From a virus, in the IMG/VR virus record IMGVR_UViG_3300045988_117048, positions 1 through 48,231 of that record: a stretch of DNA of 48,231 nucleotides; one strand, 5' to 3'. The notes below the pieces were generated by a model that saw nothing but the letters and a program-made list of their open reading frames with translations, had not been told where the DNA came from and searched no databases. Made by a program: the position numbers and the translations under genes. Positions 4,029-47,966 of the stretch are shown in pieces. The number at the start of each line of letters is the position of its first letter. The first letter of the stretch is position 1.

Positions 4029-4777
4029 TGGGACTAGTACGAGAAATTAAAGAAATAAGCCGTAACCAAACACGGCTTTTAGAAAAAGAAGAGAAACAAC
4101 ATTTTGAAGTTGAATTTGAAAAAGACATCATAAATTGTTTAAGAACCAACATAGAACAAGCAACGTTTGAGTACGGAACAAATGATGTATGGTTTAAGCA
4201 AGAAGAAATAATTATTAATACTATTGAAGATTTAAAACATATTACAATTAAAAAAAATGATATGAAACAAGAACAAGATAGTTTAGAAGATGTTATAGTA
4301 AACGAGCCTAAATATAATATTAATGAGTTAGAAGAGTATCAAATAAGTACTATTTTGGAAGATATGTTTGTAAAAGAAGTAAAGAAGTATTTACAATTAT
4401 TAAATTTACAAGAAAAAGCAAGTTTAAATAATCTTGTAGACGTTTTAGAAGAAGATATTGAAAATACATACTTATATTTAAGACAAGAAAAGTACTTAAA
4501 AAAAGATATTGTTAGAGTTTTAAAAGGGAATAGACAATTGAATTTACGTATAAAGCAATTTAATGACGATTATGATGTTAGTACAATTAAGAAAGCTTTT
4601 GAAAAGGCAACTAATAAAGTTTTAAATAAATATAGTTATGATGTAGATGTAAAAGAAAATACAATTAAAAGCAAAATTAAAAACGTACCACTTGCATACA
4701 AGTCATTAGCATTCTCATTCTTGTTAGACAAATGTGCTAGTGCATGGGCTAAGCCTAATAAATACAGCTTGAGATAG
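4028..4777 (+). CDS. Hypothetical protein (249 aa), last gene of plus-strand cassette
   Basis: ORF; GGAGA RBS; ATG overlaps previous stop (TAATG). Confidence 0.75.
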   Translation: MGLVREIKEISRNQTRLLEKEEKQHFEVEFEKDIINCLRTNIEQATFEYGTNDVWFKQEEIIINTIEDLKHITIKKNDMKQEQDSLEDVIVNEPKYNINELEEYQISTILEDMFVKEVKKYLQLLNLQEKASLNNLVDVLEEDIENTYLYLRQEKYLKKDIVRVLKGNRQLNLRIKQFNDDYDVSTIKKAFEKATNKVLNKYSYDVDVKENTIKSKIKNVPLAYKSLAFSFLLDKCASAWAKPNKYSLR

Positions 4778-4996
4778 TTGTATTTTTTTATGTATAAATA
4801 ATTTGCTACTCAAATACATATCAAAAAATCAATTTTGAGCCTATTTTGGAGTACATTTCAGCCCCGTTTTAATTGTTTTAGTACAAATATACTATCTTGT
4901 ATGTTTTCTTATCAGAAAGGCTTATTTTGGGGTTATATGATGTGTACCTTTTTTTGTACATTTTTTTCGTGTGGGTCAAGAAAAGGCGTGCTTTCA

Positions 4997-5096
4997 GTCT
5001 GGAGATTTTTTAGATATGAAAACAGTCTGGAAATTTTTTGTTTGGAAAACGCAAATAAAAAACCTGGAGATTTTCTCTAGGTCTGGAGTTATTTTT
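4997..5096 (+). repeat. Iteron array R: GTCTGGAGAT (4997), GTCTGGAAAT (5025), CCTGGAGAT (5063), GTCTGGAGTT (5081)
   Basis: Four direct copies, each followed by a T-run; same orientation as array L. Confidence 0.7.
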
Positions 5097-5310
5097 TCTT
5101 AGAATTTTTTTTCTTGTATTCTCTAGCTTGTTTTTTCTTTTCATTTCTGTAAGTTGGGTTATCCCAATAATAACTTTTGCTTTGCTTAGCTTCCTCTTTC
5201 TTATGTGTCTTAGCGTATTCTAATCTGTCTTCTTTCTTCTTTTCCCTATAAGATTTATTTTTTCTATAATAATCTCTAGCTTTCTTCTTTTCTAAAGCAG
5301 TACTAGCCAT
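5089..5310 (-). CDS. Very basic Lys/Tyr-rich small protein (73 aa; repeated YY.xN..YR..KK motif); start refined
   Basis: AAAGGAGTG RBS 6 nt before ATG (MASTALEKKK...); has its own consensus promoter. Confidence 0.7.
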   Translation of the reverse strand: MASTALEKKKARDYYRKNKSYREKKKEDRLEYAKTHKKEEAKQSKSYYWDNPTYRNEKKKQAREYKKKNSKKK

Positions 5311-5341
5311 ATATATCACTCCTTTTAATAATTATATTGAA

Positions 5342-5370
5342 ATTATATCATGTTCTAGCTTGGTTGTCAA
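5342..5370 (-). promoter_or_regulatory. Sigma-A-type promoter TTGACA-17-TATAAT with TGn
   Basis: Minus sense TTGACAaccaagctagaacaTGaTATAAT. Confidence 0.8.
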
Positions 5371-5379
5371 AATGGTGTT

Positions 5380-5411
5380 ATAAAAGAAAGAGAGGTGGTT
5401 AAATAACCACC
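5380..5411 (-). terminator. Intrinsic terminator of the ORF-free unit
   Basis: Minus sense GGUGGUUA-UU-UAACCACC followed by UCUCUUUCUUUU. Confidence 0.7.
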
Positions 5412-5563
5412 ATAGAATTAAATAAATGCAGAAACAATTAATAAAAGTTTCTATGTTCTAAAGAGTGATATAGTAAAATGTATTTATACTAAAAGATTTA
5501 GGGGGTATCTCGAAAGAAAAACATTATTCAAATGCTTACTTGACTAACACCATATCACTCTCT
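5380..5563 (-). ncRNA. Candidate ~180-nt small RNA (promoter to terminator, no ORF)
   Basis: Consensus promoter 5570-5598; 12-bp closing helix 5550-5561/5462-5473 with one G-U; hairpin AGAAAC-N11-GUUUCU; terminator. Confidence 0.55.
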
Positions 5564-18474: not shown

Positions 18475-18551
18475 TGGAAGCAGTGATGGGATTTGAACCC
18501 ATGAGTAATGGTTTTGCAAACCATCTCCTTTGACCTCTTGGATACACTGCT
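18475..18551 (-). tRNA. tRNA-Cys: tRNA-Cys (anticodon GCA), CCA encoded
   Basis: Hand-folded cloverleaf: acceptor AGCAGTG/CACTGCT, anticodon arm ATGGT-TTGCAAA-ACCAT, T arm ATGGG-TTCAAAT-CCCAT, discriminator U73, CCA. Confidence 0.9.
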
Positions 18552-35468: not shown

Positions 35469-35654
35469 AACATCATCTCCTTTTCACTACAGTAATTTTA
35501 CGGTTTACCAACCTTGAATTGAGATTTATTTATATTTACATTGATAACGCTCAATGTTAAGCACTTATTTGGCACAGGTTCTAGGTTATGCTCCCAGTAC
35601 TTTGGTTTTGGAGACCAATGTTTTTCTGATTAAACTAAACCCATAGGTAAGGGC

Positions 35655-37205
35655 TTATTGCCCTTGTATTTCTTTTTGTTCTATATTTTTCATTTTATTT
35701 TCTTGATTATCTGTTACATCATTGTCATCTACATTTTTACTTGTATCTTGTGGCATGGTATTTTGAGAACCAGTTTGCGATACTTGTTTACCAAATAATT
35801 TGTTTTGAGCTTCAGTAACTGCGTTACTATCACTAAACAAGTTAACAATACTATTAGCAAATTCTCTAGGAATATCACAAGCGTATAAGTTCATTAAACC
35901 TTGTGTCTTAACAAGTAAGTTATCAGACATATCTCTTTGGAATTTAGCGTCAATATCAACTACTTTTAAGTTTGTTATTCCACTACCAGCAGTATCTCTA
36001 CATATCTTAAGAATAACTTTAAGTGAGTTAATATCAGCCATCTTGAACATTGTTTCATCTGCTTCGGCTCTTATACCAGCAGAAGTGAACCCTTGTCCTG
36101 TAAGTTTTGCCTTACCAGTATCACCACTTGTAACTGTACCGTTATCGGTAGCAAGTGGAACTCCTAAGATTTGGAATAATGAAGTTAATAATCTAGTGTA
36201 ATATGTTTGAGTATCAGTAGCATTTAATCTACCTTGTAACAAGTCTACACTTGCTTTCATTTGGTCGGTAGACTTAATAGATACTGCACCCAACTTTTTC
36301 ATACCTTTTAAGCCCTCTTCATCTATTTCGGCATTTGTAAATACCATAATAGCATTAACAAATTGTTCCATATCATCTTTATCAAGGCTTTCTAAGTAGT
36401 TAATATCATCAAATAGGTCTTTACCTATTTCTATCATTGATATTCTGCCTCTATTAAGGTAATATTCTGTTATAATATGTTCTCCCCATAAAAGTGGTAT
36501 TGGTTTACCCTCTCTTTTTAATGCCCCACTCTTAGTACTATAAGTTATCTTCATGTTTCTTAAATATACATCATATTGCATATAAGAAACTGGTTTAGTA
36601 ACTATTTCCTTGTTTTCTGGGTCAATATTTGGGAAGTATTGCATTGGTGTTTCTATATAAGCAAATAATTGCTCATTACCTAATGCACTTGAATAAACAA
36701 CTTCTGTATGTTCAGCAGGACAATTTATAATCTCAAATGGCGCTTCATCTTCACTACCTAATGGGTCTTTGTTTACATATCTAAAACCTCTACCACAAGT
36801 TAATACATCTTCATACAATAATAAGTCTTTAGTTTGTTTGTTTTCATATCTAACGTATTGGTTCAATTTAGATATTTCTGCTCCACCTGCGTCATTTAAT
36901 TGAACATATTGAATAGGTTTCCCTAACAAGAATGATTTTTTAAACTCAGTTAAAGCATAAACCCAGTTTTCAGTTGTCTTGTTGTTTATTTCTTCTCTAG
37001 TATATTTTACTTTGTTTTTAATATCTTGGTCTCCTAGTAGGTATCTTTTAAGATAAATTGTGTCATTTTTATTTTGTTCATGAAATTGTTCAGCATTTTT
37101 TAATACTTCAATTATCATTTCATCTCTTTTTTTAGGAGTTGCATTTAATAATTGTTCTTCTGTGAAATTTCCAAGTATTGTAATCCTACCAAAAGTTTTT
37201 TGCAT
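35655..37205 (-). CDS. Portal protein (SPP1 gp6-like), start refined
   Basis: AAAGGTAGGTGGAATT before ATG 37205; YLKRYLLGDQDI...LGKPIQYV N-terminal motif; follows terL. Confidence 0.85.
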   Translation of the reverse strand: MQKTFGRITILGNFTEEQLLNATPKKRDEMIIEVLKNAEQFHEQNKNDTIYLKRYLLGDQDIKNKVKYTREEINNKTTENWVYALTEFKKSFLLGKPIQYVQLNDAGGAEISKLNQYVRYENKQTKDLLLYEDVLTCGRGFRYVNKDPLGSEDEAPFEIINCPAEHTEVVYSSALGNEQLFAYIETPMQYFPNIDPENKEIVTKPVSYMQYDVYLRNMKITYSTKSGALKREGKPIPLLWGEHIITEYYLNRGRISMIEIGKDLFDDINYLESLDKDDMEQFVNAIMVFTNAEIDEEGLKGMKKLGAVSIKSTDQMKASVDLLQGRLNATDTQTYYTRLLTSLFQILGVPLATDNGTVTSGDTGKAKLTGQGFTSAGIRAEADETMFKMADINSLKVILKICRDTAGSGITNLKVVDIDAKFQRDMSDNLLVKTQGLMNLYACDIPREFANSIVNLFSDSNAVTEAQNKLFGKQVSQTGSQNTMPQDTSKNVDDNDVTDNQENKMKNIEQKEIQGQ

Positions 37206-37234
37206 AATTCCACCTACCTTTATAACCTGTACCA

Positions 37235-37264
37235 ATTATACTACAAATGTAAATCATTTGTCAA
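37235..37264 (-). promoter_or_regulatory. Sigma-A-type promoter TTGACA-18-TATAAT upstream of portal
   Basis: Minus sense gatTTGACAaatgatttacatttgtagTATAAT. Confidence 0.65.
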
Positions 37265-37280: not shown

Positions 37281-37304
37281 TGAAAAAAGACCTTAAAAAG
37301 GTCT
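37281..37304 (-). terminator. Intrinsic terminator overlapping the terL stop
   Basis: Minus sense AGACCUU-UUU-AAGGUCU followed by UUUUUUC. Confidence 0.65.
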
Positions 37305-39071
37305 AATCATAGGTATTGCTTTAGGTGTATAAGAACCACCATCAATTATTTCGTGTGTGAACATACCACAACTATCTGGTGCGTCATCGTTAGGGTTCGT
37401 ACCAGTATTATTGTAAAGAGTTAAGTTATTCATAAATTGCCCCATTTCACTTTGCACACCAATATTATCTTGTTGTGGGAACACTAATTTTCTAATAATG
37501 TTACCCTTTTCAAGTTCTATTCTTGCTTTTTTATTTTCACAATTATATTTCTCTCTTATTTGACAATAGCCAACATTATTTGCTTTTAATATTTTCTCTA
37601 TGTTTTGTTTCAATTCACTTGTAACATTACTTTCTATTACTAATTCAATGATATGATGTTCCATAATCTTCTCTGCTACTTGATAATACATATCTTTAGT
37701 TGCAGTTCTTGTAAATAAGCAGTCTTTTAAATAATAATCATATCCATTCTCATTTGGAACTTTAATAAAAATAGGCATTGCAAAGAAGTCTTTACCACTC
37801 TTTCTTGTTGCGTCTATTACTGCATAACCCCCCATGAAATCCGTTTTTGGAATAGTCTCATAAGTTCTTAGTTTGCTATAACTAAAGAATAAAGCGTCAG
37901 GGTCTGTAGGTCTTTGTTGAAAGTTGGTTTCCCAGAGATATTCTTCCATAGCAGATTTTTCCAATAACAATTCTTTTGTTGTTTTTAACTCTGGGCAAGT
38001 AGACAAACCTGTTTCATAATCTAATGCTGGAACTTGAATAATAACAACACTACCATCTTCACTAATCCATGTATATTTAAATGTAGGGTGTTTTTTAAAT
38101 TTATGTCTCTTCTTTTGCAATTTAATTAATAAAGCGATGAAGTCCCCACTAGCCCACAATGTACCAGTAACGACTACTTTAGGTATCATATTTTGAACGA
38201 AACGTTTGCTCCATACAGTTAAATGTTTATTTAAATAATACTCATTAAGATTTTGGCTCATTGCTTCTTTATAATCGGCATATAAGTCATCAATATGTAT
38301 TCTTTGGCTTGCTCTGACACCTACAACATTACTTTGAACTGTCTTAGCATAATAACTAGATACAAGTTTGCATTGTTTTAATTTCCAATTACTCTCGGTT
38401 TCTTTTAAAAAGTAATTTTTTTTATCTTCGTTCCAAGCCATTTCAGGGAATACCTCTCCAAACCATTCACTTTTCATTTCATCAATTACAACTCTACTAC
38501 CACCTTTAACAACATCTTCATTTGAACAAAGAGACAATACAGTACCTGATGGGTCTCTTCCAAAAGCCCATGCTTCACTTATCTTTTCTGGAAATGTTTT
38601 CCCGTAACCACTAGGCATATTTGCTATAACTAAATGAACATTAGGGTTTGTTACTATCTGTTCTAAGTAATAAATATATCCTCTCATTATTTCATATCTA
38701 GGTGCAAAAAACCTTTCTGATGGAGTATCTTCCCATTCCCTATATATGAAATAACTTTCAAGTGATGTTCTGGCACTCATTCTATAAGCATTTTTAAGAT
38801 ATTTCATATATTCTATTGCTCTAGTACCATCTTTATCAAGTTTAACAACTAAGTTTAACAATGGTATATATCTCATAGTACTTAATCTACTACATTTTTC
38901 TGGGTTTAAATCATAAAATTTGTTGAAAAGCACATTCATATCGTCCATGATGTTTTTTAAATCTTGAAATGGTAGTTTTTTCTTATTCTTGCTATCAAAG
39001 TTTTTATCTAATAGTTCAAAATACTTAAGAATATAATCTAGGACTTGTTTCTCATTTAACTCTTGTTGCAT
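37293..39071 (-). CDS. terL: Terminase large subunit (592 aa)
   Basis: MPSGYGKTF (Walker A-like), RIHIDDLYAD (Walker B-like), C-terminal nuclease region; upstream of portal. Confidence 0.85.
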   Translation of the reverse strand: MQQELNEKQVLDYILKYFELLDKNFDSKNKKKLPFQDLKNIMDDMNVLFNKFYDLNPEKCSRLSTMRYIPLLNLVVKLDKDGTRAIEYMKYLKNAYRMSARTSLESYFIYREWEDTPSERFFAPRYEIMRGYIYYLEQIVTNPNVHLVIANMPSGYGKTFPEKISEAWAFGRDPSGTVLSLCSNEDVVKGGSRVVIDEMKSEWFGEVFPEMAWNEDKKNYFLKETESNWKLKQCKLVSSYYAKTVQSNVVGVRASQRIHIDDLYADYKEAMSQNLNEYYLNKHLTVWSKRFVQNMIPKVVVTGTLWASGDFIALLIKLQKKRHKFKKHPTFKYTWISEDGSVVIIQVPALDYETGLSTCPELKTTKELLLEKSAMEEYLWETNFQQRPTDPDALFFSYSKLRTYETIPKTDFMGGYAVIDATRKSGKDFFAMPIFIKVPNENGYDYYLKDCLFTRTATKDMYYQVAEKIMEHHIIELVIESNVTSELKQNIEKILKANNVGYCQIREKYNCENKKARIELEKGNIIRKLVFPQQDNIGVQSEMGQFMNNLTLYNNTGTNPNDDAPDSCGMFTHEIIDGGSYTPKAIPMIRPF

Positions 39072-39072
39072 A

Positions 39073-39759
39073 TTAGTCCCCCTTTTTCTCTATGAAATCC
39101 TTGTATTTCTCCAAGTTAGCATTAATTCTATCAGTATTAACAACTTCTTTATAGGTAATATTTACATTTGGTTGTACTTTCTCAACCATTTCATGTTGGG
39201 CTTTTAGTTTGAATATAGTGCTTTTTTCCCTGACTTGACCCATCTGAGACATAGTTAAGTTATCATCTCCTAATTGGTCATAGATTTTTTCAACCACATT
39301 ACGCATTTCAATGTCACTAGAGTTCTTATATTCTCTTAAAGTTTGATAAGAAATGCCTGCTAATTTACAAAATGACAACAAACTAGGTGGGTAATTCCCT
39401 ATCTTATCGTTTATTTCACTTATTAAATAGTTGTAATATTCAAACACTATGCCTAATTTTTCTGCATTATAAATAGGCACTTTGTTATGTAAAGGACATA
39501 TACTCTTAAAGAAGTAATTAGATATTACTATAGGTTTTACTTCTACGTAAGTATCTATTATGTCCCCCTCTTTATCGTAGATAAATTTTTCATGTTTACT
39601 AGCATAATCTATCATTTCATTAACTTTTTCTTCTTTAAGTGTGTCTATTGCTTTTGTTATATCGTTTATTGTTCCATTAACATAAAATTCTTCAAGTTCT
39701 CTAACTGCTATTTTATTTTGTTGTCTTATTGCTTGATTTTTGTCTTTCAATTCATTCAT
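39073..39759 (-). CDS. terS: Terminase small subunit (228 aa)
   Basis: Immediately upstream of terL; HTH-like SFCKLAGISYQTLREYKN. Confidence 0.6.
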   Translation of the reverse strand: MNELKDKNQAIRQQNKIAVRELEEFYVNGTINDITKAIDTLKEEKVNEMIDYASKHEKFIYDKEGDIIDTYVEVKPIVISNYFFKSICPLHNKVPIYNAEKLGIVFEYYNYLISEINDKIGNYPPSLLSFCKLAGISYQTLREYKNSSDIEMRNVVEKIYDQLGDDNLTMSQMGQVREKSTIFKLKAQHEMVEKVQPNVNITYKEVVNTDRINANLEKYKDFIEKKGD

Positions 39760-39850: not shown

Positions 39851-40243
39851 ATGCAAAATACCCCATTAAAAATCGTTGTAGAGGTCATTCCAAGAAGTAA
39901 AAAGAACTCACAAGAGATAATATTCAATAAAAGAACTGGTAGAAGAATGGTAATTCAAAATAAAAGGTACACAGAATTTGAAAAGGACTGTAAATGGTTC
40001 ATGCCAAAACTAGAGAAACCAATAAACTACCCAATTAACTTAAGTTGCCATTTTTATGTAAATGACGCTAGAAGAAGAGACATAGCAAACTACCTAGAAG
40101 CTATACAAGATATTTTAGTTAAATACAAAGTAATAGAAGATGATAATTATAGCATAATAGCTTCACTAGATGGTTGTAAAATGGAAATAGATAGGACTAA
40201 CCCACGTTGTGAAATTGAAATAACAAAAAAAGAGACTAATTAA
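39851..40243 (+). CDS. rusA: RusA-family Holliday junction resolvase
   Basis: CHFYVNDARRRDIANYLEAIQDIL...IEDDN aligns by eye with E. coli RusA [23 protein letters not shown]...LDDA. Confidence 0.85.
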   Translation: MQNTPLKIVVEVIPRSKKNSQEIIFNKRTGRRMVIQNKRYTEFEKDCKWFMPKLEKPINYPINLSCHFYVNDARRRDIANYLEAIQDILVKYKVIEDDNYSIIASLDGCKMEIDRTNPRCEIEITKKETN

Positions 40244-40289
40244 AGCCTCTTTTTTTCGTAAGACGGTGTGATAATTACCACAAATAATG

Positions 40290-40321
40290 AAAAATTGCAA
40301 GGGGAGTTGTACGCCCCTTGA
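40290..40321 (-). terminator. Intrinsic terminator ending the large ORF-free unit
   Basis: Minus sense CAAGGGG-CGUACAACU-CCCCUUG followed by CAAUUUUUC. Confidence 0.75.
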
Positions 40322-41268
40322 TAAATTGATTTAGGTATTCTTCACACTAATAGAACATAACCAAATTTTCTCAGCCAATAGGAAGTAAAAGTCCTCGTAG
40401 GGAGCGACCCTATGTCCTCTTTTACCAAGTTAAACCTATAGTAAATCTCTCTTACCCACTTTCACACACACTAGGAAATTCTATATTGTTTACTCGCACG
40501 CAAACCATTTTAGCATTCATTCTTCATTTTCGGGTGTAGATTTGTGCTACTCGTACCAGTTTCTAGTGTTATACTCCTGTCACCAGGTATCAACTACACA
40601 TTGGTTTATTGGTTTCCTGCCTAGCCTTTATGCACCACACATAATAGCATATTCGCAGTGTACTCAGTGTATGCTTGTACATACCTTTTCCTGATTACCA
40701 ACCACTAGTCCTGTGCCTTAAATTCTCTTATGCCCTACTACTATTATCTCTTTCCACACTTTGGTGTCTCAACAATAATATTACTATTATCGTACACATA
40801 ATCCCTCAAAAAATCTCTCTTCTAAGTAATACGAACGAGATAATATCCTTACCACATTGTGTTGTAGTCTTTCATAAGGTTCTAAATCAATTTATCAAAG
40901 AGCGTTCCTTACGACCAATAAGGAACTCCATGTTCATTGTTATTCACATTGGGTGTTGAATGTCAATGTCAGTGCTTACGACATTTTAATAAGCACCATA
41001 GAATGAATATATAGGCAAGCAATACTACTACCCAACTTTTCGTATTCACTCTATGCTACTTATTAGTAGCACATTTTTTTAAAACAAAGTCCACATATAT
41101 TTAAATAATGTCCTAATGGACATCGTAGGAATAGTGTGTGCTAGATGATGGTTTCGACGCTATCTAACATTAGCAGCCAATTCCAATACACTATCCCTAC
41201 GACACCTATTAGGTGTCTGAGGTTACATATACATTGCTACAGCCTTAGCAATATACTCTTCCGAGTAC
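40290..41268 (-). ncRNA. Candidate large (~0.97 kb) structured non-coding RNA
   Basis: Consensus promoter and terminator, no minus-strand ORF >=60 aa, higher G+C, many long helices with G-U pairs valid only in the minus sense, GNRA-capped hairpins. Confidence 0.6.
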
Positions 41269-41274
41269 ATATTA

Positions 41275-41303
41275 AGTATATCACAAGTCCTTTTTATTGT
41301 CAA
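41275..41303 (-). promoter_or_regulatory. Sigma-A-type promoter TTGACA-17-TATACT
   Basis: Minus sense gtgTTGACAataaaaaggacttgtgaTATACT; overlaps the stop of the 86-aa gene. Confidence 0.75.
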
Positions 41304-41541
41304 CACAATTTTCACTATTTTTTATCAAAAACAAAGGGTCATTTAAGAACTCCCAAATAGCGTCCAAATCCATCACACTTATGTTGCAATGACTATAAAC
41401 GTACCATTTATACATTGTTTTATATTTTAAACCCTTATAAAGCTTTTTTATAGCCCATTTATCTTGCCAAAAGTCTTTTCTAGTGTAAAAACGCATTCCA
41501 TCTCGTATAAATCTGCATTCCATGTACTCTTCTTTTGTCAT
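41281..41541 (-). CDS. Hypothetical protein (86 aa)
   Basis: ORF track; ATGA overlap with the upstream HNH gene. Confidence 0.6.
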   Translation of the reverse strand: MTKEEYMECRFIRDGMRFYTRKDFWQDKWAIKKLYKGLKYKTMYKWYVYSHCNISVMDLDAIWEFLNDPLFLIKNSENCVDNKKDL

Positions 41542-41939
41542 AATTTTATCCTTTCTTTAACATATTCTCTTCTAATCAACAAATGTCCTTTTTTAGTATA
41601 ATCGTGGTCGTGTTCTCTTTCAAAATATAATAGCAAATCTCTAATTTTCTTTAAATTCTCTATATCTACTCTTCTTTTAATGTTTTCATCAATTAATTCG
41701 CTTGTTATCAAATAAAATATTTCAGGGTCAACCAAATTTATGCGGTGCAAGTAATCGTGACTGGTGTTCTGCCTAAGTACTGCTCCGTTTTCAAATGTCA
41801 TAGGTCCACCATCTTTATTTGCTATAATCATGTGATGATATGAAAGTTGTTTTGTATTGTTAAATGTGTACCCCATCTGGTCGTAGCCTAACTTATTCAA
41901 TTTGAAAGTCTTTATCATTTCTCTAGTGATTTCTTTCAT
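41538..41939 (-). CDS. HNH endonuclease-like protein (133 aa)
   Basis: LSYHHMII..KDGGPMTFENGAVL...SHDYLHRI (H-N-H pattern). Confidence 0.6.
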   Translation of the reverse strand: MKEITREMIKTFKLNKLGYDQMGYTFNNTKQLSYHHMIIANKDGGPMTFENGAVLRQNTSHDYLHRINLVDPEIFYLITSELIDENIKRRVDIENLKKIRDLLLYFEREHDHDYTKKGHLLIRREYVKERIKL

Positions 41940-46448: not shown

Positions 46449-46459
46449 TACATTTATAT

Positions 46460-46489
46460 AAAAAAAGAAAGGAGACCATTTAGTCTCTT
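46460..46489 (-). terminator. Intrinsic terminator of the second ORF-free unit
   Basis: Minus sense GAGAC-UAAAUG-GUCUC followed by CUUUCUUUUUUU. Confidence 0.65.
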
Positions 46490-46708
46490 AAAATGTGAAC
46501 AACGAATTAAAAAGATAACATCTAATTAACTCCGAGTAGTCATCCTCGCATTTCGTGCCTTATAAGCACCACAGGATAGACAAGTATCTTTACACGTACC
46601 GTTTCTTATGTGTCGTATCTTTACACGTTTCTTATCTACCCTATGCTGCCTATAGCAGCTTATAAAAAGTGATAAATTAGATTTAAATTTATAACCTCTC
46701 GGTTACAT
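46460..46708 (-). ncRNA. Candidate ~245-nt structured small RNA
   Basis: Perfect promoter 46714-46742; 5' hairpin UAACC-GAGA-GGUUA; 11-bp helix 46631-46641/46574-46584 with two G-U; 8-bp closing helix 46675-46682/46520-46527; terminator; no ORF. Confidence 0.6.
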
Positions 46709-46713
46709 ACTCT

Positions 46714-46742
46714 ATTATATTACTTCTTTCTTGCTTTGTCAA
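46714..46742 (-). promoter_or_regulatory. Perfect consensus sigma-A promoter TTGACA-17-TATAAT
   Basis: Minus sense gtaTTGACAaagcaagaaagaagtaaTATAAT. Confidence 0.85.
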
Positions 46743-46747
46743 TACTA

Positions 46748-47036: not shown

Positions 47037-47966
47037 TTATACCTCGTCTACAAAATTCTTTATATCATCTAATATTACTTCGTTTTGCTTATCTGTATAT
47101 TCAATTCCCACTCTCTCTACATGATACCATTGATTATCTAATTTATTTTTGGTTCTTGATGTTTTCGTTTTTGCTTGTTTACATATGCTATCGTACATTT
47201 GCTTAACACTTCTCCCCATAAATTCTGCTAGTTCTTCATAACCATCTAATTGTTTAATATATCCCCCATCTAAATCATAAATATTAAATAAAATTTTAGT
47301 TTTAACCTTTGGAATTAATCTATGATATTTAGGTAATTTTAATATTTCATCTAATGTAAGCCCATGTTTTAACATTCTTTGCCTTACTTGTTCAGTATTC
47401 TTTCCTGCTTTTTCTATCCTTTCTACATCTTCTAATGTAAATCTAGTCGTTCTCTTATTCCTATTTTGAATTTCATTGGTTACCCATCTACAGTTATCAG
47501 GTGAATATCCCTTGCCATTGTCAATTCTATCTATTGATAATAAATTCCTACCTTTTTCATCTAATTCTTCTTTATACCCATTTTCTATTGCCCAATTATA
47601 GAAGTTCATGAAATCATCTAACCACTCTTGGCATATTGTTATTCCTCTATTTCCGTAATTTACATAATTTGTGCTTTTTTTATTATAACACCTCTCTTTC
47701 ATTCCTAACCACACATTAAATATCTTAGTCCCAGATAGTCCATGTTTCTCTCTACCCTCTAAATTCTTTATTCTGCTTTCTTTTAATACACACCCACACG
47801 ACATAGTCTTGCCTATGGTTAAATTGGTGTATTGGGTCTCTTTCGTTCCTCCACAGTCACATTTACATATTGCTATCACTTTCTTCCCTTTCTCTTTCTT
47901 ATAACCTACTATTGTTAGTTTTCCATATCTTTCACCTATTATTTCTTCATAATTTTTTCTCTTCAT
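47037..47966 (-). CDS. DNA-binding protein with N-terminal Cys cluster and degenerate HNH_3/AP2-like domain (309 aa)
   Basis: GERYGKLTIVG...CKCDCGG...SCGC; YVNYGNRGITICQEW; LSIDRIDNGKGYSPDNCRWVTNEIQNRN. Confidence 0.6.
   Translation of the reverse strand: MKRKNYEEIIGERYGKLTIVGYKKEKGKKVIAICKCDCGGTKETQYTNLTIGKTMSCGCVLKESRIKNLEGREKHGLSGTKIFNVWLGMKERCYNKKSTNYVNYGNRGITICQEWLDDFMNFYNWAIENGYKEELDEKGRNLLSIDRIDNGKGYSPDNCRWVTNEIQNRNKRTTRFTLEDVERIEKAGKNTEQVRQRMLKHGLTLDEILKLPKYHRLIPKVKTKILFNIYDLDGGYIKQLDGYEELAEFMGRSVKQMYDSICKQAKTKTSRTKNKLDNQWYHVERVGIEYTDKQNEVILDDIKNFVDEV

Follow-up and report, generated by a model that had tools for sequence, protein, structure and literature searches.

A probable noncoding RNA operon in a low-G+C tailed phage, combining a ROOL RNA with a leader of bracket modules

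A 2017 study introduced ROOL as a ~581-nt RNA from phages and prophages, often found close to tRNAs (Weinberg et al. 2017, PMC5737381). Cryo-electron microscopy of ROOL env-120 revealed a homo-octameric hollow cage with D4 symmetry (Kretsch et al. 2025, PMC12286853), and the promoter of the L. salivarius ROOL maps 225-450 nt upstream of the RNA (PMC5643018). GOLLD, a large cage-forming RNA of phages and prophages, is likewise often located near tRNAs and sometimes carries tRNAs embedded in its variable linker (PMC12286853). Here, we analysed positions 40290-41303 (minus strand) of a 48,231-nt stretch of viral DNA, IMG/VR record IMGVR_UViG_3300045988_117048, positions 1 to 48,231 (hereafter the window, meaning the whole stretch). 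The region lies between the early genes and the terminase genes and, with a probability of roughly 0.85, represents a self-contained operon for noncoding RNA in a low-G+C tailed phage, composed of a ROOL RNA and a leader built from repeated elements that we call bracket modules.

The window copy resembles the described ROOLs in its match to the full model, its P1 closing stem, the annotated pseudoknots, the core motifs, the variable linker, a length of ~580-590 nt and its origin in a gut/rumen-type phage. It differs from them in context. The IMG/VR ROOLs examined often reside in a same-strand tRNA array (L019, L057, L071, L056, L084 and L052; L numbers denote loci), whereas the nearest tRNA in the window, a tRNA-Trp, is 4.7 kb away, and the window copy is equipped with its own promoter, a 365-nt bracket-module leader and its own terminator. 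Furthermore, it belongs to a low-scoring ROOL subfamily, most examined members of which are flanked by bracket modules. GOLLD is unrelated to the unit in sequence and fold, although its linker-borne tRNAs have a parallel in a tRNA found inside one bracket module (L154, see below).

The ROOL RNA and its transcription unit

The 3′ 588 nt of the unit are a member of the ROOL family and not a new class. Scanning the window with Rfam 15 gave a ROOL match of 171.7 bits (gathering score 99.1, E 7.7e-37) that covers model positions 1-574 of 574 without truncation (Table 1). At the gathering score, the only other matches in the whole window were two tRNAs, and when positions 40150-41450 were searched at E values up to 10, nothing but weak microRNA, small nucleolar RNA and other small-RNA-type matches accompanied the ROOL. 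No covariance-model match was obtained for GOLLD, OLE, HEARO, raiA or group I/II introns.

An earlier note on this DNA had proposed that ~970 nt between a promoter and a terminator form a single highly structured RNA, reminiscent of the GOLLD/ROOL class but possibly new, and had suggested the Rfam scan that returned the ROOL match. The promoter, the minus strand free of open reading frames (ORFs), the raised G+C content and the terminator are all present where the note placed them, and its transcribed, highly structured noncoding minus-strand unit is supported by the conserved promoter and terminators, the stability of the leader (z = -7.1) and the ROOL E value, the transcription itself being predicted. 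Its comparison with ROOL proved correct and that with GOLLD did not, with no match even at E values up to 10. The claim of a new class gives way to the full-length ROOL in the 3′ 588 nt, and in place of one ~970-nt folded RNA there is a composite of a 5′ hairpin, two modules, a further hairpin and the ROOL.

Most of the helices listed in the note pair as described, namely both 13-bp helices (each with 12 Watson-Crick pairs and one G.U), the 9-bp and 7-bp helices, three GNRA hairpins and two paralogous hairpins. A supposedly perfect 17-bp helix at 40872-40888 was misplaced: only five Watson-Crick and two G.U pairs form among the 17 positions, and the true 5′ arm is found 10 nt away at 40882-40898, so the enclosed domain measures 581 nt rather than 571. 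The 17-, 9- and 7-bp helices correspond to ROOL consensus stems, as do the GUAA and GUGA hairpins. The two 13-bp helices are the long stems of bracket modules A and B, and hairpin B of module B accounts for one of the paralogous hairpins. The helices covary in homologs, as the note had expected of a structured RNA, and the conserved reading frame that it had named as a finding to the contrary is absent.

The P1 helix is the longest inverted repeat of the window and reaches 24 nt at 92% complementarity (40882-40905 with 40311-40334). It is kept in all 23 ROOL copies with coordinates, as 9-21 contiguous pairs of differing sequence. The core motifs (CCAAUAA; GUAUAAcAc...GGUAC.AGUAGC; GUGAAAG; the GGGUCGCUCCC hairpin; GGCUGA) all align to the consensus, and a motif screen confirmed them across the clade. 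All annotated ROOL helices, including the pseudoknot strands, can be filled with few non-standard pairs, which describes a fit to the model rather than an independent structure. An insertion-rich segment of low alignment confidence (~40440-40530) aligns to the model linker and differs between the window and L001. The phage context typical of ROOL is also present, with a large terminase-like ORF, RusA and, in relatives, a portal gene. Full-length ROOLs occur at the same site in L001, L007-L012 and L115, and the copy in L116 is truncated at its 5′ end by the end of the contig; the relatives score 155-194 bits. The low-scoring subfamily as a whole, with the window included, spans 149-200 bits, compared to 272-338 bits for other ROOLs. 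A strict pattern of the ROOL core retrieved only the 48,444-nt relative discussed below, and a looser pattern retrieved 94 loci, ~25 of them real ROOLs.

The unit is preceded by a sigma-70 type promoter with 11 of 12 consensus matches, and the -35, TG and -10 elements are invariant across seven related loci although the upstream gene or ORF differs. From its position, we infer a transcription start near 41267. Promoter to terminator, the primary unit spans ~975 nt, and its G+C content (0.367) exceeds that of the whole window (0.300) and of the flanks (0.29-0.30). The minus strand of the unit holds no ORF, the longest stop-free stretch being 39 aa. Six relatives likewise lack any sense ORF of at least 40 aa within the unit; the sole one listed, of 45 aa in L012, has its start at the second base of the extracted sequence. 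Among the relatives and 20 ROOL copies compared, neither strand has a conserved reading frame.

Termination at the first terminator is predicted from its hairpin and T-run. A terminator scan skipped this element solely because of its 9-nt loop, and it was confirmed by a direct check of the pairing. In relatives, its stem covaries (GGGG/CCCC, GGAG/CTCC, AAGGG/CCCTT), and the T-run TTTTTCATTTTT is invariant. The second, bidirectional terminator, which is common to the unit and the convergent RusA gene, covaries as well.

The leader and the bracket modules

The 365 nt between promoter and ROOL are not part of the ROOL, and the unit is composite. The leader comprises a 5′ GNRA hairpin, two bracket modules and one further hairpin, and matches no Rfam family. 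Its predicted fold (-114.8 kcal/mol) has a z value of -7.1 relative to dinucleotide shuffles and is ~20 kcal/mol more stable in the transcribed sense than in the opposite sense. In relatives, the leader is a mosaic of conserved helices, with several pairs changed on both sides, and of variable, indel-rich stretches between them. Among the relatives, no long-range helix with covariation was seen to connect the leader with the ROOL.

The 5′ hairpin has a GAAA loop in relatives, and one of its U-A pairs is U.G in L001. The hairpin is deleted in L007, L008 and L010 and must therefore be dispensable, but where present it likely stabilises the 5′ end of the transcript. At the other end of the leader, hairpin H7 (GUUCCUUA-UUGGUCG-UAAGGAAC) abuts the 5′ end of the ROOL, and its form in relatives (AUUCCCUA...UAGGGAAU) corresponds to two compensatory pairs.

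The modules were recognised through a related locus, L111, where the site that elsewhere holds the ROOL is taken by a ~1.1-kb noncoding stretch (4390-5529, minus strand) that carries three tandem copies (4522-4637, 4780-4961 and 4990-5082) of a unit that can be traced in the window leader, with no ROOL. In this locus, ~300 nt separate a promoter-like site from the first module. Each module consists of a hairpin, a long helix that starts with CAUAGAGU and closes a variable interior, and a second hairpin that starts with GGUGCUUA. A covariance model, R1, was built from 47 metagenome copies; the window was excluded, and one of the copies (L150) has a module identical to module B. The features captured by R1 are hairpin A, a 14-bp helix with a conserved G.U pair, the GGUGCUUAUAAA tail and the variable interior, with sense scores higher than antisense scores. 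In the window, module B scores 70.7 bits (E 2.6e-14, 40976-41073) compared to 37.3 bits on the plus strand, and its arms agree with the consensus of ~50 metagenome copies. The diverged module A scores 27.2 bits over the full model and 17.0 bits on the other strand. Module A shows compensatory changes among relatives, and in L001 its site is occupied by a different sequence that forms a perfect 27-bp hairpin.

A two-part pattern placed across the long helix matched 66 metagenome loci from rumen, human gut and fermentation samples, ~50 of which are true modules (~15 matches were excluded as chance or coding), as well as 35 IMG/VR contigs. The fetched loci hold more than 100 module copies, all from uncultured gut, rumen and related metagenome and viral contigs, and usually arranged as same-strand tandem arrays of two to four copies. 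The window itself carries another copy in the early region (46549-46662; R1 55.1 bits compared to 27.3, E 1.2e-10) as part of a stand-alone unit. This unit has a perfect TTGACA-17-TATAAT promoter (46746-46718), a terminator (~46459-46488) and, after the promoter, a 5′ hairpin GUAACC-GAGA-GGUUAU (~46690-46705), a layout like the start of the ROOL unit. BLAST with the consensus module found nothing in GenBank phages or PLSDB plasmids, an Rfam scan of 20 consensus-like module loci yielded no family, and a full-text literature search for module signature sequences gave only two unrelated primer matches. Judged by Rfam 15 and the searchable literature, the bracket module and its tie to one ROOL subfamily are apparently previously undescribed.

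This tie is seen at several positions relative to the ROOL. A same-strand module ends 5 nt before the ROOL in L030, L052, L089 and L099 and 25-38 nt before it in L065 and L038, and modules follow the ROOL at 41-163 nt in L063, L034 and L058. These nine module-flanked ROOLs, from unrelated IMG/VR phages, score 149-185 bits, similar to the ROOL of the window. In contrast, five ROOLs with scores of 272-338 bits (L019, L057, L071, L082 and L056) lack R1 modules, several of them (L019, L057, L071 and L056) inside tRNA arrays; in L019, tRNAs touch both ends of the ROOL.

The arms of the module are nearly invariant well past the bases fixed by the search pattern, whereas the interior varies and, as judged from sequence comparison, behaves as an exchangeable cassette. 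The L007 and L010 copies are 95-100% identical in the flanks and only 61% identical (background) in the interior, whereas the interior of L010 is 98% identical to those of L119 and L166, the flanks being at background (60-65%). The L119 and L166 modules are embedded in tRNA arrays, far from terminase genes. Similarly, the interior of window module B is 83% identical to that of L172, the flanks of which are at background similarity. L154 (625-782, minus strand) has a 73-bit module whose interior is a complete tRNA-Trp (663-738, CCA encoded), in the order 5′ arm, 9 nt, tRNA, 3 nt, 3′ arm, with a second, ordinary module just upstream (818-916).

Several further traits of the interiors and of leader hairpins were noted. 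Short stems with a (U)GUCGUA or GGUCGUA loop occur in the window (40972-40996 and 40904-40926) and within the interiors of unrelated modules (L123, L139 and L140), and these stems show compensatory changes. In L011 (5127-5345) and L115 (5135-5353), the interior of module B is expanded to ~180 nt and includes a T-arm-like stretch AAGGTTCAACTCCTATCCCTGCTA that may be a tRNA remnant; ARAGORN calls no tRNA in these interiors. Decay of a tRNA array was rejected as the origin of the window leader, in which neither ARAGORN nor Rfam finds a tRNA, and the hairpins H6 and H7 were dropped as mimics of a T-arm or anticodon arm, the loops fitting neither consensus. Three further readings, as type III toxin-antitoxin RNA array, CRISPR-like array or retron RNA, were set aside without formal tests, as no toxin, cas or reverse transcriptase gene is nearby and the repeat geometry is wrong. 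A pattern of the invariant leader hairpins matched two unrelated viral contigs, both by chance and inside coding sequence.

The two arms of the module are inverted copies of one another, and both are small palindromes in their own right. Two folds are therefore possible, one with three helices and one with a single extended hairpin of ~28 pairs. In an alignment of 47 sequences, 93.5% of the cells were paired and seven pairs had changed on both sides, a level that none of 500 shuffles reached. When 72 sequences were aligned on the model, among them array copies never chosen by the pattern, 96.5% of the cells were paired and 17 of 20 pairs had changed on both sides (0/500 shuffles as high; slid controls 26-48%), values that lean towards structure because the alignment is fitted to the model.

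Strand preference is pronounced. Each of 15 distinct modules is more stable in the sense orientation (summed -643 compared to -449 kcal/mol), and the sense strand has 94 G.U pairs and one A.C mismatch, compared to 23 and 15, respectively, on the other strand. Of 71 distinct sequences, 64 retain one particular G.U pair. The R1 sense score is always above the antisense score, by ~30-40 bits for most copies and less for a few, and tRNAs near modules share the module strand in all eight loci. Together with the stand-alone unit and its own promoter and terminator, the strand bias, sense scores and tRNA co-orientation point to modules that act as RNA on the ROOL strand.

On these grounds, we tentatively propose, at somewhat less than even odds, that the leader modules represent a new and widespread class of phage RNA, in which a near-invariant bracket of nested palindromes holds exchangeable small-RNA cargo, up to a whole tRNA, and which occurs in tandem, among tRNAs and flanking one ROOL subfamily. 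In phage T4, the small, stable and structured species 1 and 2 RNAs are co-transcribed with the tRNA cluster, and their likeness to the modules is an analogy of context only.

Table 1. Positions of the RNA unit, its elements and neighbouring features in the window
Feature	Positions	Strand	Description
Promoter	41275-41303	minus	sigma-70 type: TTGACA, 17 nt, TG-extended TATACT; 11/12 consensus matches
5′ GNRA hairpin	41253-41268	minus	GUACUC-GGAA-GAGUAU
Bracket module A (diverged)	41103-41220	minus	hairpin 41201-41217; helix 41188-41200/41125-41137 with 50-nt interior; hairpin 41108-41123
Bracket module B (canonical)	40972-41073	minus	hairpin A 41054-41071; helix 41043-41053/40999-41009 with 33-nt cargo; hairpin B 40972-40996
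Hairpin H7	40904-40926	minus	abuts ROOL 5′ end
ROOL RNA, full length	40316-40903	minus	Rfam RF03087; 588 nt
ROOL P1 closing stem	40882-40898 with 40318-40334	minus	19 contiguous pairs
Intrinsic terminator 1	40290-40320	minus	predicted; hairpin 40298-40320 CAAGGGG-N9-CCCCTTG, then TTTTT 40290-40294
Bidirectional terminator	40225-40256	both	13 pairs, flanked by A-run and T-run; common to convergent RusA gene
Stand-alone module unit	46455-46746	minus	early region; module 46549-46662
RusA	39851-40243	plus	convergent; Pfam PF05866, 31.7 bits
Small terminase-like ORF	39073-39759		weak match
Large terminase-like ORF	37293-39071		592 aa; weak Pfam match below cut-off
133-aa ORF	41538-41939		HNH nuclease by eye; no Pfam/PHROG match; two genes upstream of ROOL promoter
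tRNA-Trp(CCA)	35570-35644	minus	beside 526-aa ORF 35655-37235, which precedes the large terminase-like ORF
tRNA-Cys(GCA)	18475-18551	minus	

A model of the unit and its alternatives

The combined results suggest a model in which host RNA polymerase would start at the strong sigma-70 promoter (41303-41275) and produce a ~975-nt primary transcript ending at the hairpin and T-run (40320-40290), with the bidirectional terminator (40256-40225) as a backstop. Read 5′ to 3′, the transcript would contain the GNRA-capped hairpin, the two brackets, a further hairpin and the full-length ROOL (40903-40316). By homology with the ROOLs solved by cryo-electron microscopy, the ROOL part would be expected to adopt a multi-junction, pseudoknotted fold and to assemble into a homo-octameric cage. 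The leader would be cut away from the ROOL, a step for which the L. salivarius promoter 225-450 nt upstream of its ROOL (PMC5643018) and the ROOL of L019, directly flanked by tRNAs, provide precedents. The bracket helices may serve as processing or stabilising stems at the RNA level, probably as substrates of a double-strand-specific RNase such as RNase III, and would thereby take the role that the flanking tRNAs have where a ROOL lies in a tRNA array.

Long helices formed by both sides of a stable RNA are familiar from the processing stems of rRNA operons and from RNase III sites in phage early transcripts (T7 and the Bacillus phage SP82). The module arms are similar in that they could form ~28 nearly continuous pairs around the cargo, which is once a whole tRNA; such a helix describes a potential for an RNase III stem only. 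They differ from these stems in being near-invariant across unrelated phages, in being palindromic, with an alternative three-helix fold, and in having their cargo exchanged.

Several points weigh against this model. We infer the start site, the 3′ end and the cleavage alike, and a 365-nt 5′ extension on P1 might instead remain attached, decorating or obstructing the cage. Sequence conservation of the arms goes far beyond what a simple RNase III stem requires, which points to a sequence-specific partner or to recombination. Covariation is seen for the extended fold and for the hairpin fold alike. The exchange of interiors between phages would also be explicable by a mechanism at the DNA level, and the G.U strand bias would equally be expected of a DNA element that folds as a single strand. 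Finally, the ROOL of the window, at 172 bits, scores below the tRNA-array ROOLs (272-338 bits), and the cage for this subfamily rests on homology.

In one alternative, the modules would work as DNA, either as mobile or recombining cassettes (REPIN- or MITE-like, or folded as single strands in the manner of attC) or as packaging or terminase sites, with transcription being incidental. REPIN/BIME nested palindromes and integron attC sites belong to chromosomal DNA and require a RAYT transposase or an integrase. Like them, the modules have two inverted palindromic units around a spacer that can form one long or two short hairpins, and they are repeated, extragenic, conserved in sequence and cassette-like. 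The near-invariance of the palindromic arms across unrelated phages and the swapping of interiors as discrete units (L007/L010; L010/L119/L166) fit this explanation, as does the covariation of both folds, which is expected for self-homogenising inverted repeats. Module arrays are, in addition, often located just upstream of terminase or head genes, and this holds for the window too, where an ORF that resembles an HNH nuclease by eye lies nearby. We nevertheless consider a DNA function unlikely. The modules reside in phages and are co-oriented with RNA genes, with the tRNAs in eight of eight loci and with the ROOL in all cases. The excess of G.U over A.C in the sense strand is strong, although it does not exclude a site folding as single-stranded DNA, and one G.U pair is conserved in most distinct sequences. 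The unit at 46455-46746 has a promoter and terminator of its own, no transposase, RAYT or integrase gene was noticed beside the arrays, and the modules of L119 and L166 are remote from terminase genes.

A regulatory function in cis is improbable. Here, the leader would be a processive antiterminator, comparable to put of HK022, or a two-state attenuator, and would govern how far transcription from its promoter reads through both terminators towards the terminase and late genes, which share its strand. Modules are indeed found directly after strong promoters and upstream of same-strand late genes, and the two conserved folds are mutually exclusive. Arrays that end 5 nt before a start codon also fit this reading. 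However, the convergent RusA gene and the bidirectional terminator stand between the unit and the small terminase gene, and downstream of the second module copy in the window come a terminator and, by eye, a further promoter-like sequence. Modules located 3′ of a ROOL, in tRNA arrays and around a tRNA are unexpected for an antiterminator, and the variable, exchangeable interiors are left unaccounted for.

The arrays in question are those of L168 (4488-4681), L169 (1310-1971, four copies) and L170 (3606-3724). The gene that follows encodes a conserved protein of 143-152 aa, the L168 copy of which has no PHROG match. The ribosome-binding site overlaps the module tail in these loci, and the module could therefore affect translation there.

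The reading closest to that of the earlier note, in which the whole ~970 nt form one giant structured RNA of a new class with the leader as an integral extra domain, is very improbable. It is true that a single promoter and a single terminator frame the whole unit and that all close relatives share a conserved, structured leader. Yet the 3′ portion amounts to a whole ROOL with a P1 of its own as closing stem, and no covarying long-range pairing with the leader was seen. The two parts also occur separately, with leader elements but no ROOL in L111, at 46549-46662 of the window and in dozens of metagenome loci, and with ROOLs free of leader elements in L019, L057, L071, L082 and L056.

A decayed gene or a real protein gene on the opposite strand can practically be dismissed. 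The unit is overlapped by three plus-strand ORFs (94, 71 and 50 aa), and antisense ORFs of 75-76 aa occur in relatives, but 1- and 2-nt indels and three to four stops interrupt the 94-aa frame in every relative. The longest antisense open stretch varies across 20 ROOL copies in position (38-389) and length (52-138 aa), indicating a compositional effect of the purine-rich sense strand, and covariation at the RNA level explains the conservation.

Phage context, relatives and significance

BLAST searches with the unit and with its 8-kb neighbourhood found nothing in GenBank phages. A search anchored on the terminase identified one ROOL-bearing relative, a 48,444-nt contig present in IMG/VR as an uncultivated viral genome (UViG) and also deposited as CAAHEL010000070, a contig of the metagenome-assembled genome 'Bacilli bacterium HGM10818'. 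The same search gave three relatives in IMG/VR with more distant terminases, none of which has a ROOL. The relatives were gathered mainly with RusA as an anchor and form a graded series. The loci with a RusA at least 80% identical to that of the window (L007-L012, L115 and L116) carry the ROOL; L111, with a RusA of 78% identity, has modules and no ROOL; and L013, L014, L015, L113 and L114, with a RusA of 72-76% identity, have neither the gap nor the ROOL. In L013 (4375-4647, minus strand), a promoter (TTGACA...TATTAT) precedes one ~55-nt hairpin RNA (GUAAAUUAGUGUUA...UUAACACUGAUUUAC) located before the shared bidirectional terminator. Given this grading of presence and absence with relatedness and the variants in L013 and L111, the unit is best described as an accessory cassette in a variable slot, and on sequence features the slot seems always to express some small RNA.

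The large terminase, 592 aa in the window, has 921 aa in L008 (455-3220) and at least 1230 aa in L010 (1-3221). The L010 protein has faint matches to Hint/intein domains, and L007 and L009 hold two genes at this place (437 and 157 aa). The relatives thus appear to carry an intein or other insertions in terL. Neither tRNA of the window is near the ROOL, and the same tRNA-Trp is found in L001. The second module unit of the window adjoins a gene for a 309-aa HNH endonuclease (47037-47966, minus strand; PHROG 374, E 8e-60).

Few natural RNAs are known to form a closed cage that exceeds the ribosome in size, and ROOL is one of them; a further ROOL gene is in itself not news. What the locus adds is a ROOL that appears as an optional cassette, with a clean predicted promoter and terminator, in a small phage of ~48 kb, with near relatives that lack the ROOL or have leader modules alone and so constitute a natural comparison set for expression and knockout work. 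The flanking of one ROOL subfamily by modules instead of tRNAs suggests that release of the ROOL from its precursor differs between lineages. The module, whose arms are invariant and whose cargo is swappable, qualifies as a candidate new RNA family and merits curation. Should it prove to be a partner in the processing, stabilisation or assembly of ROOL, or a carrier that moves small RNAs from phage to phage, it would provide the first genetic handle on how cage RNAs are made and on their partners.

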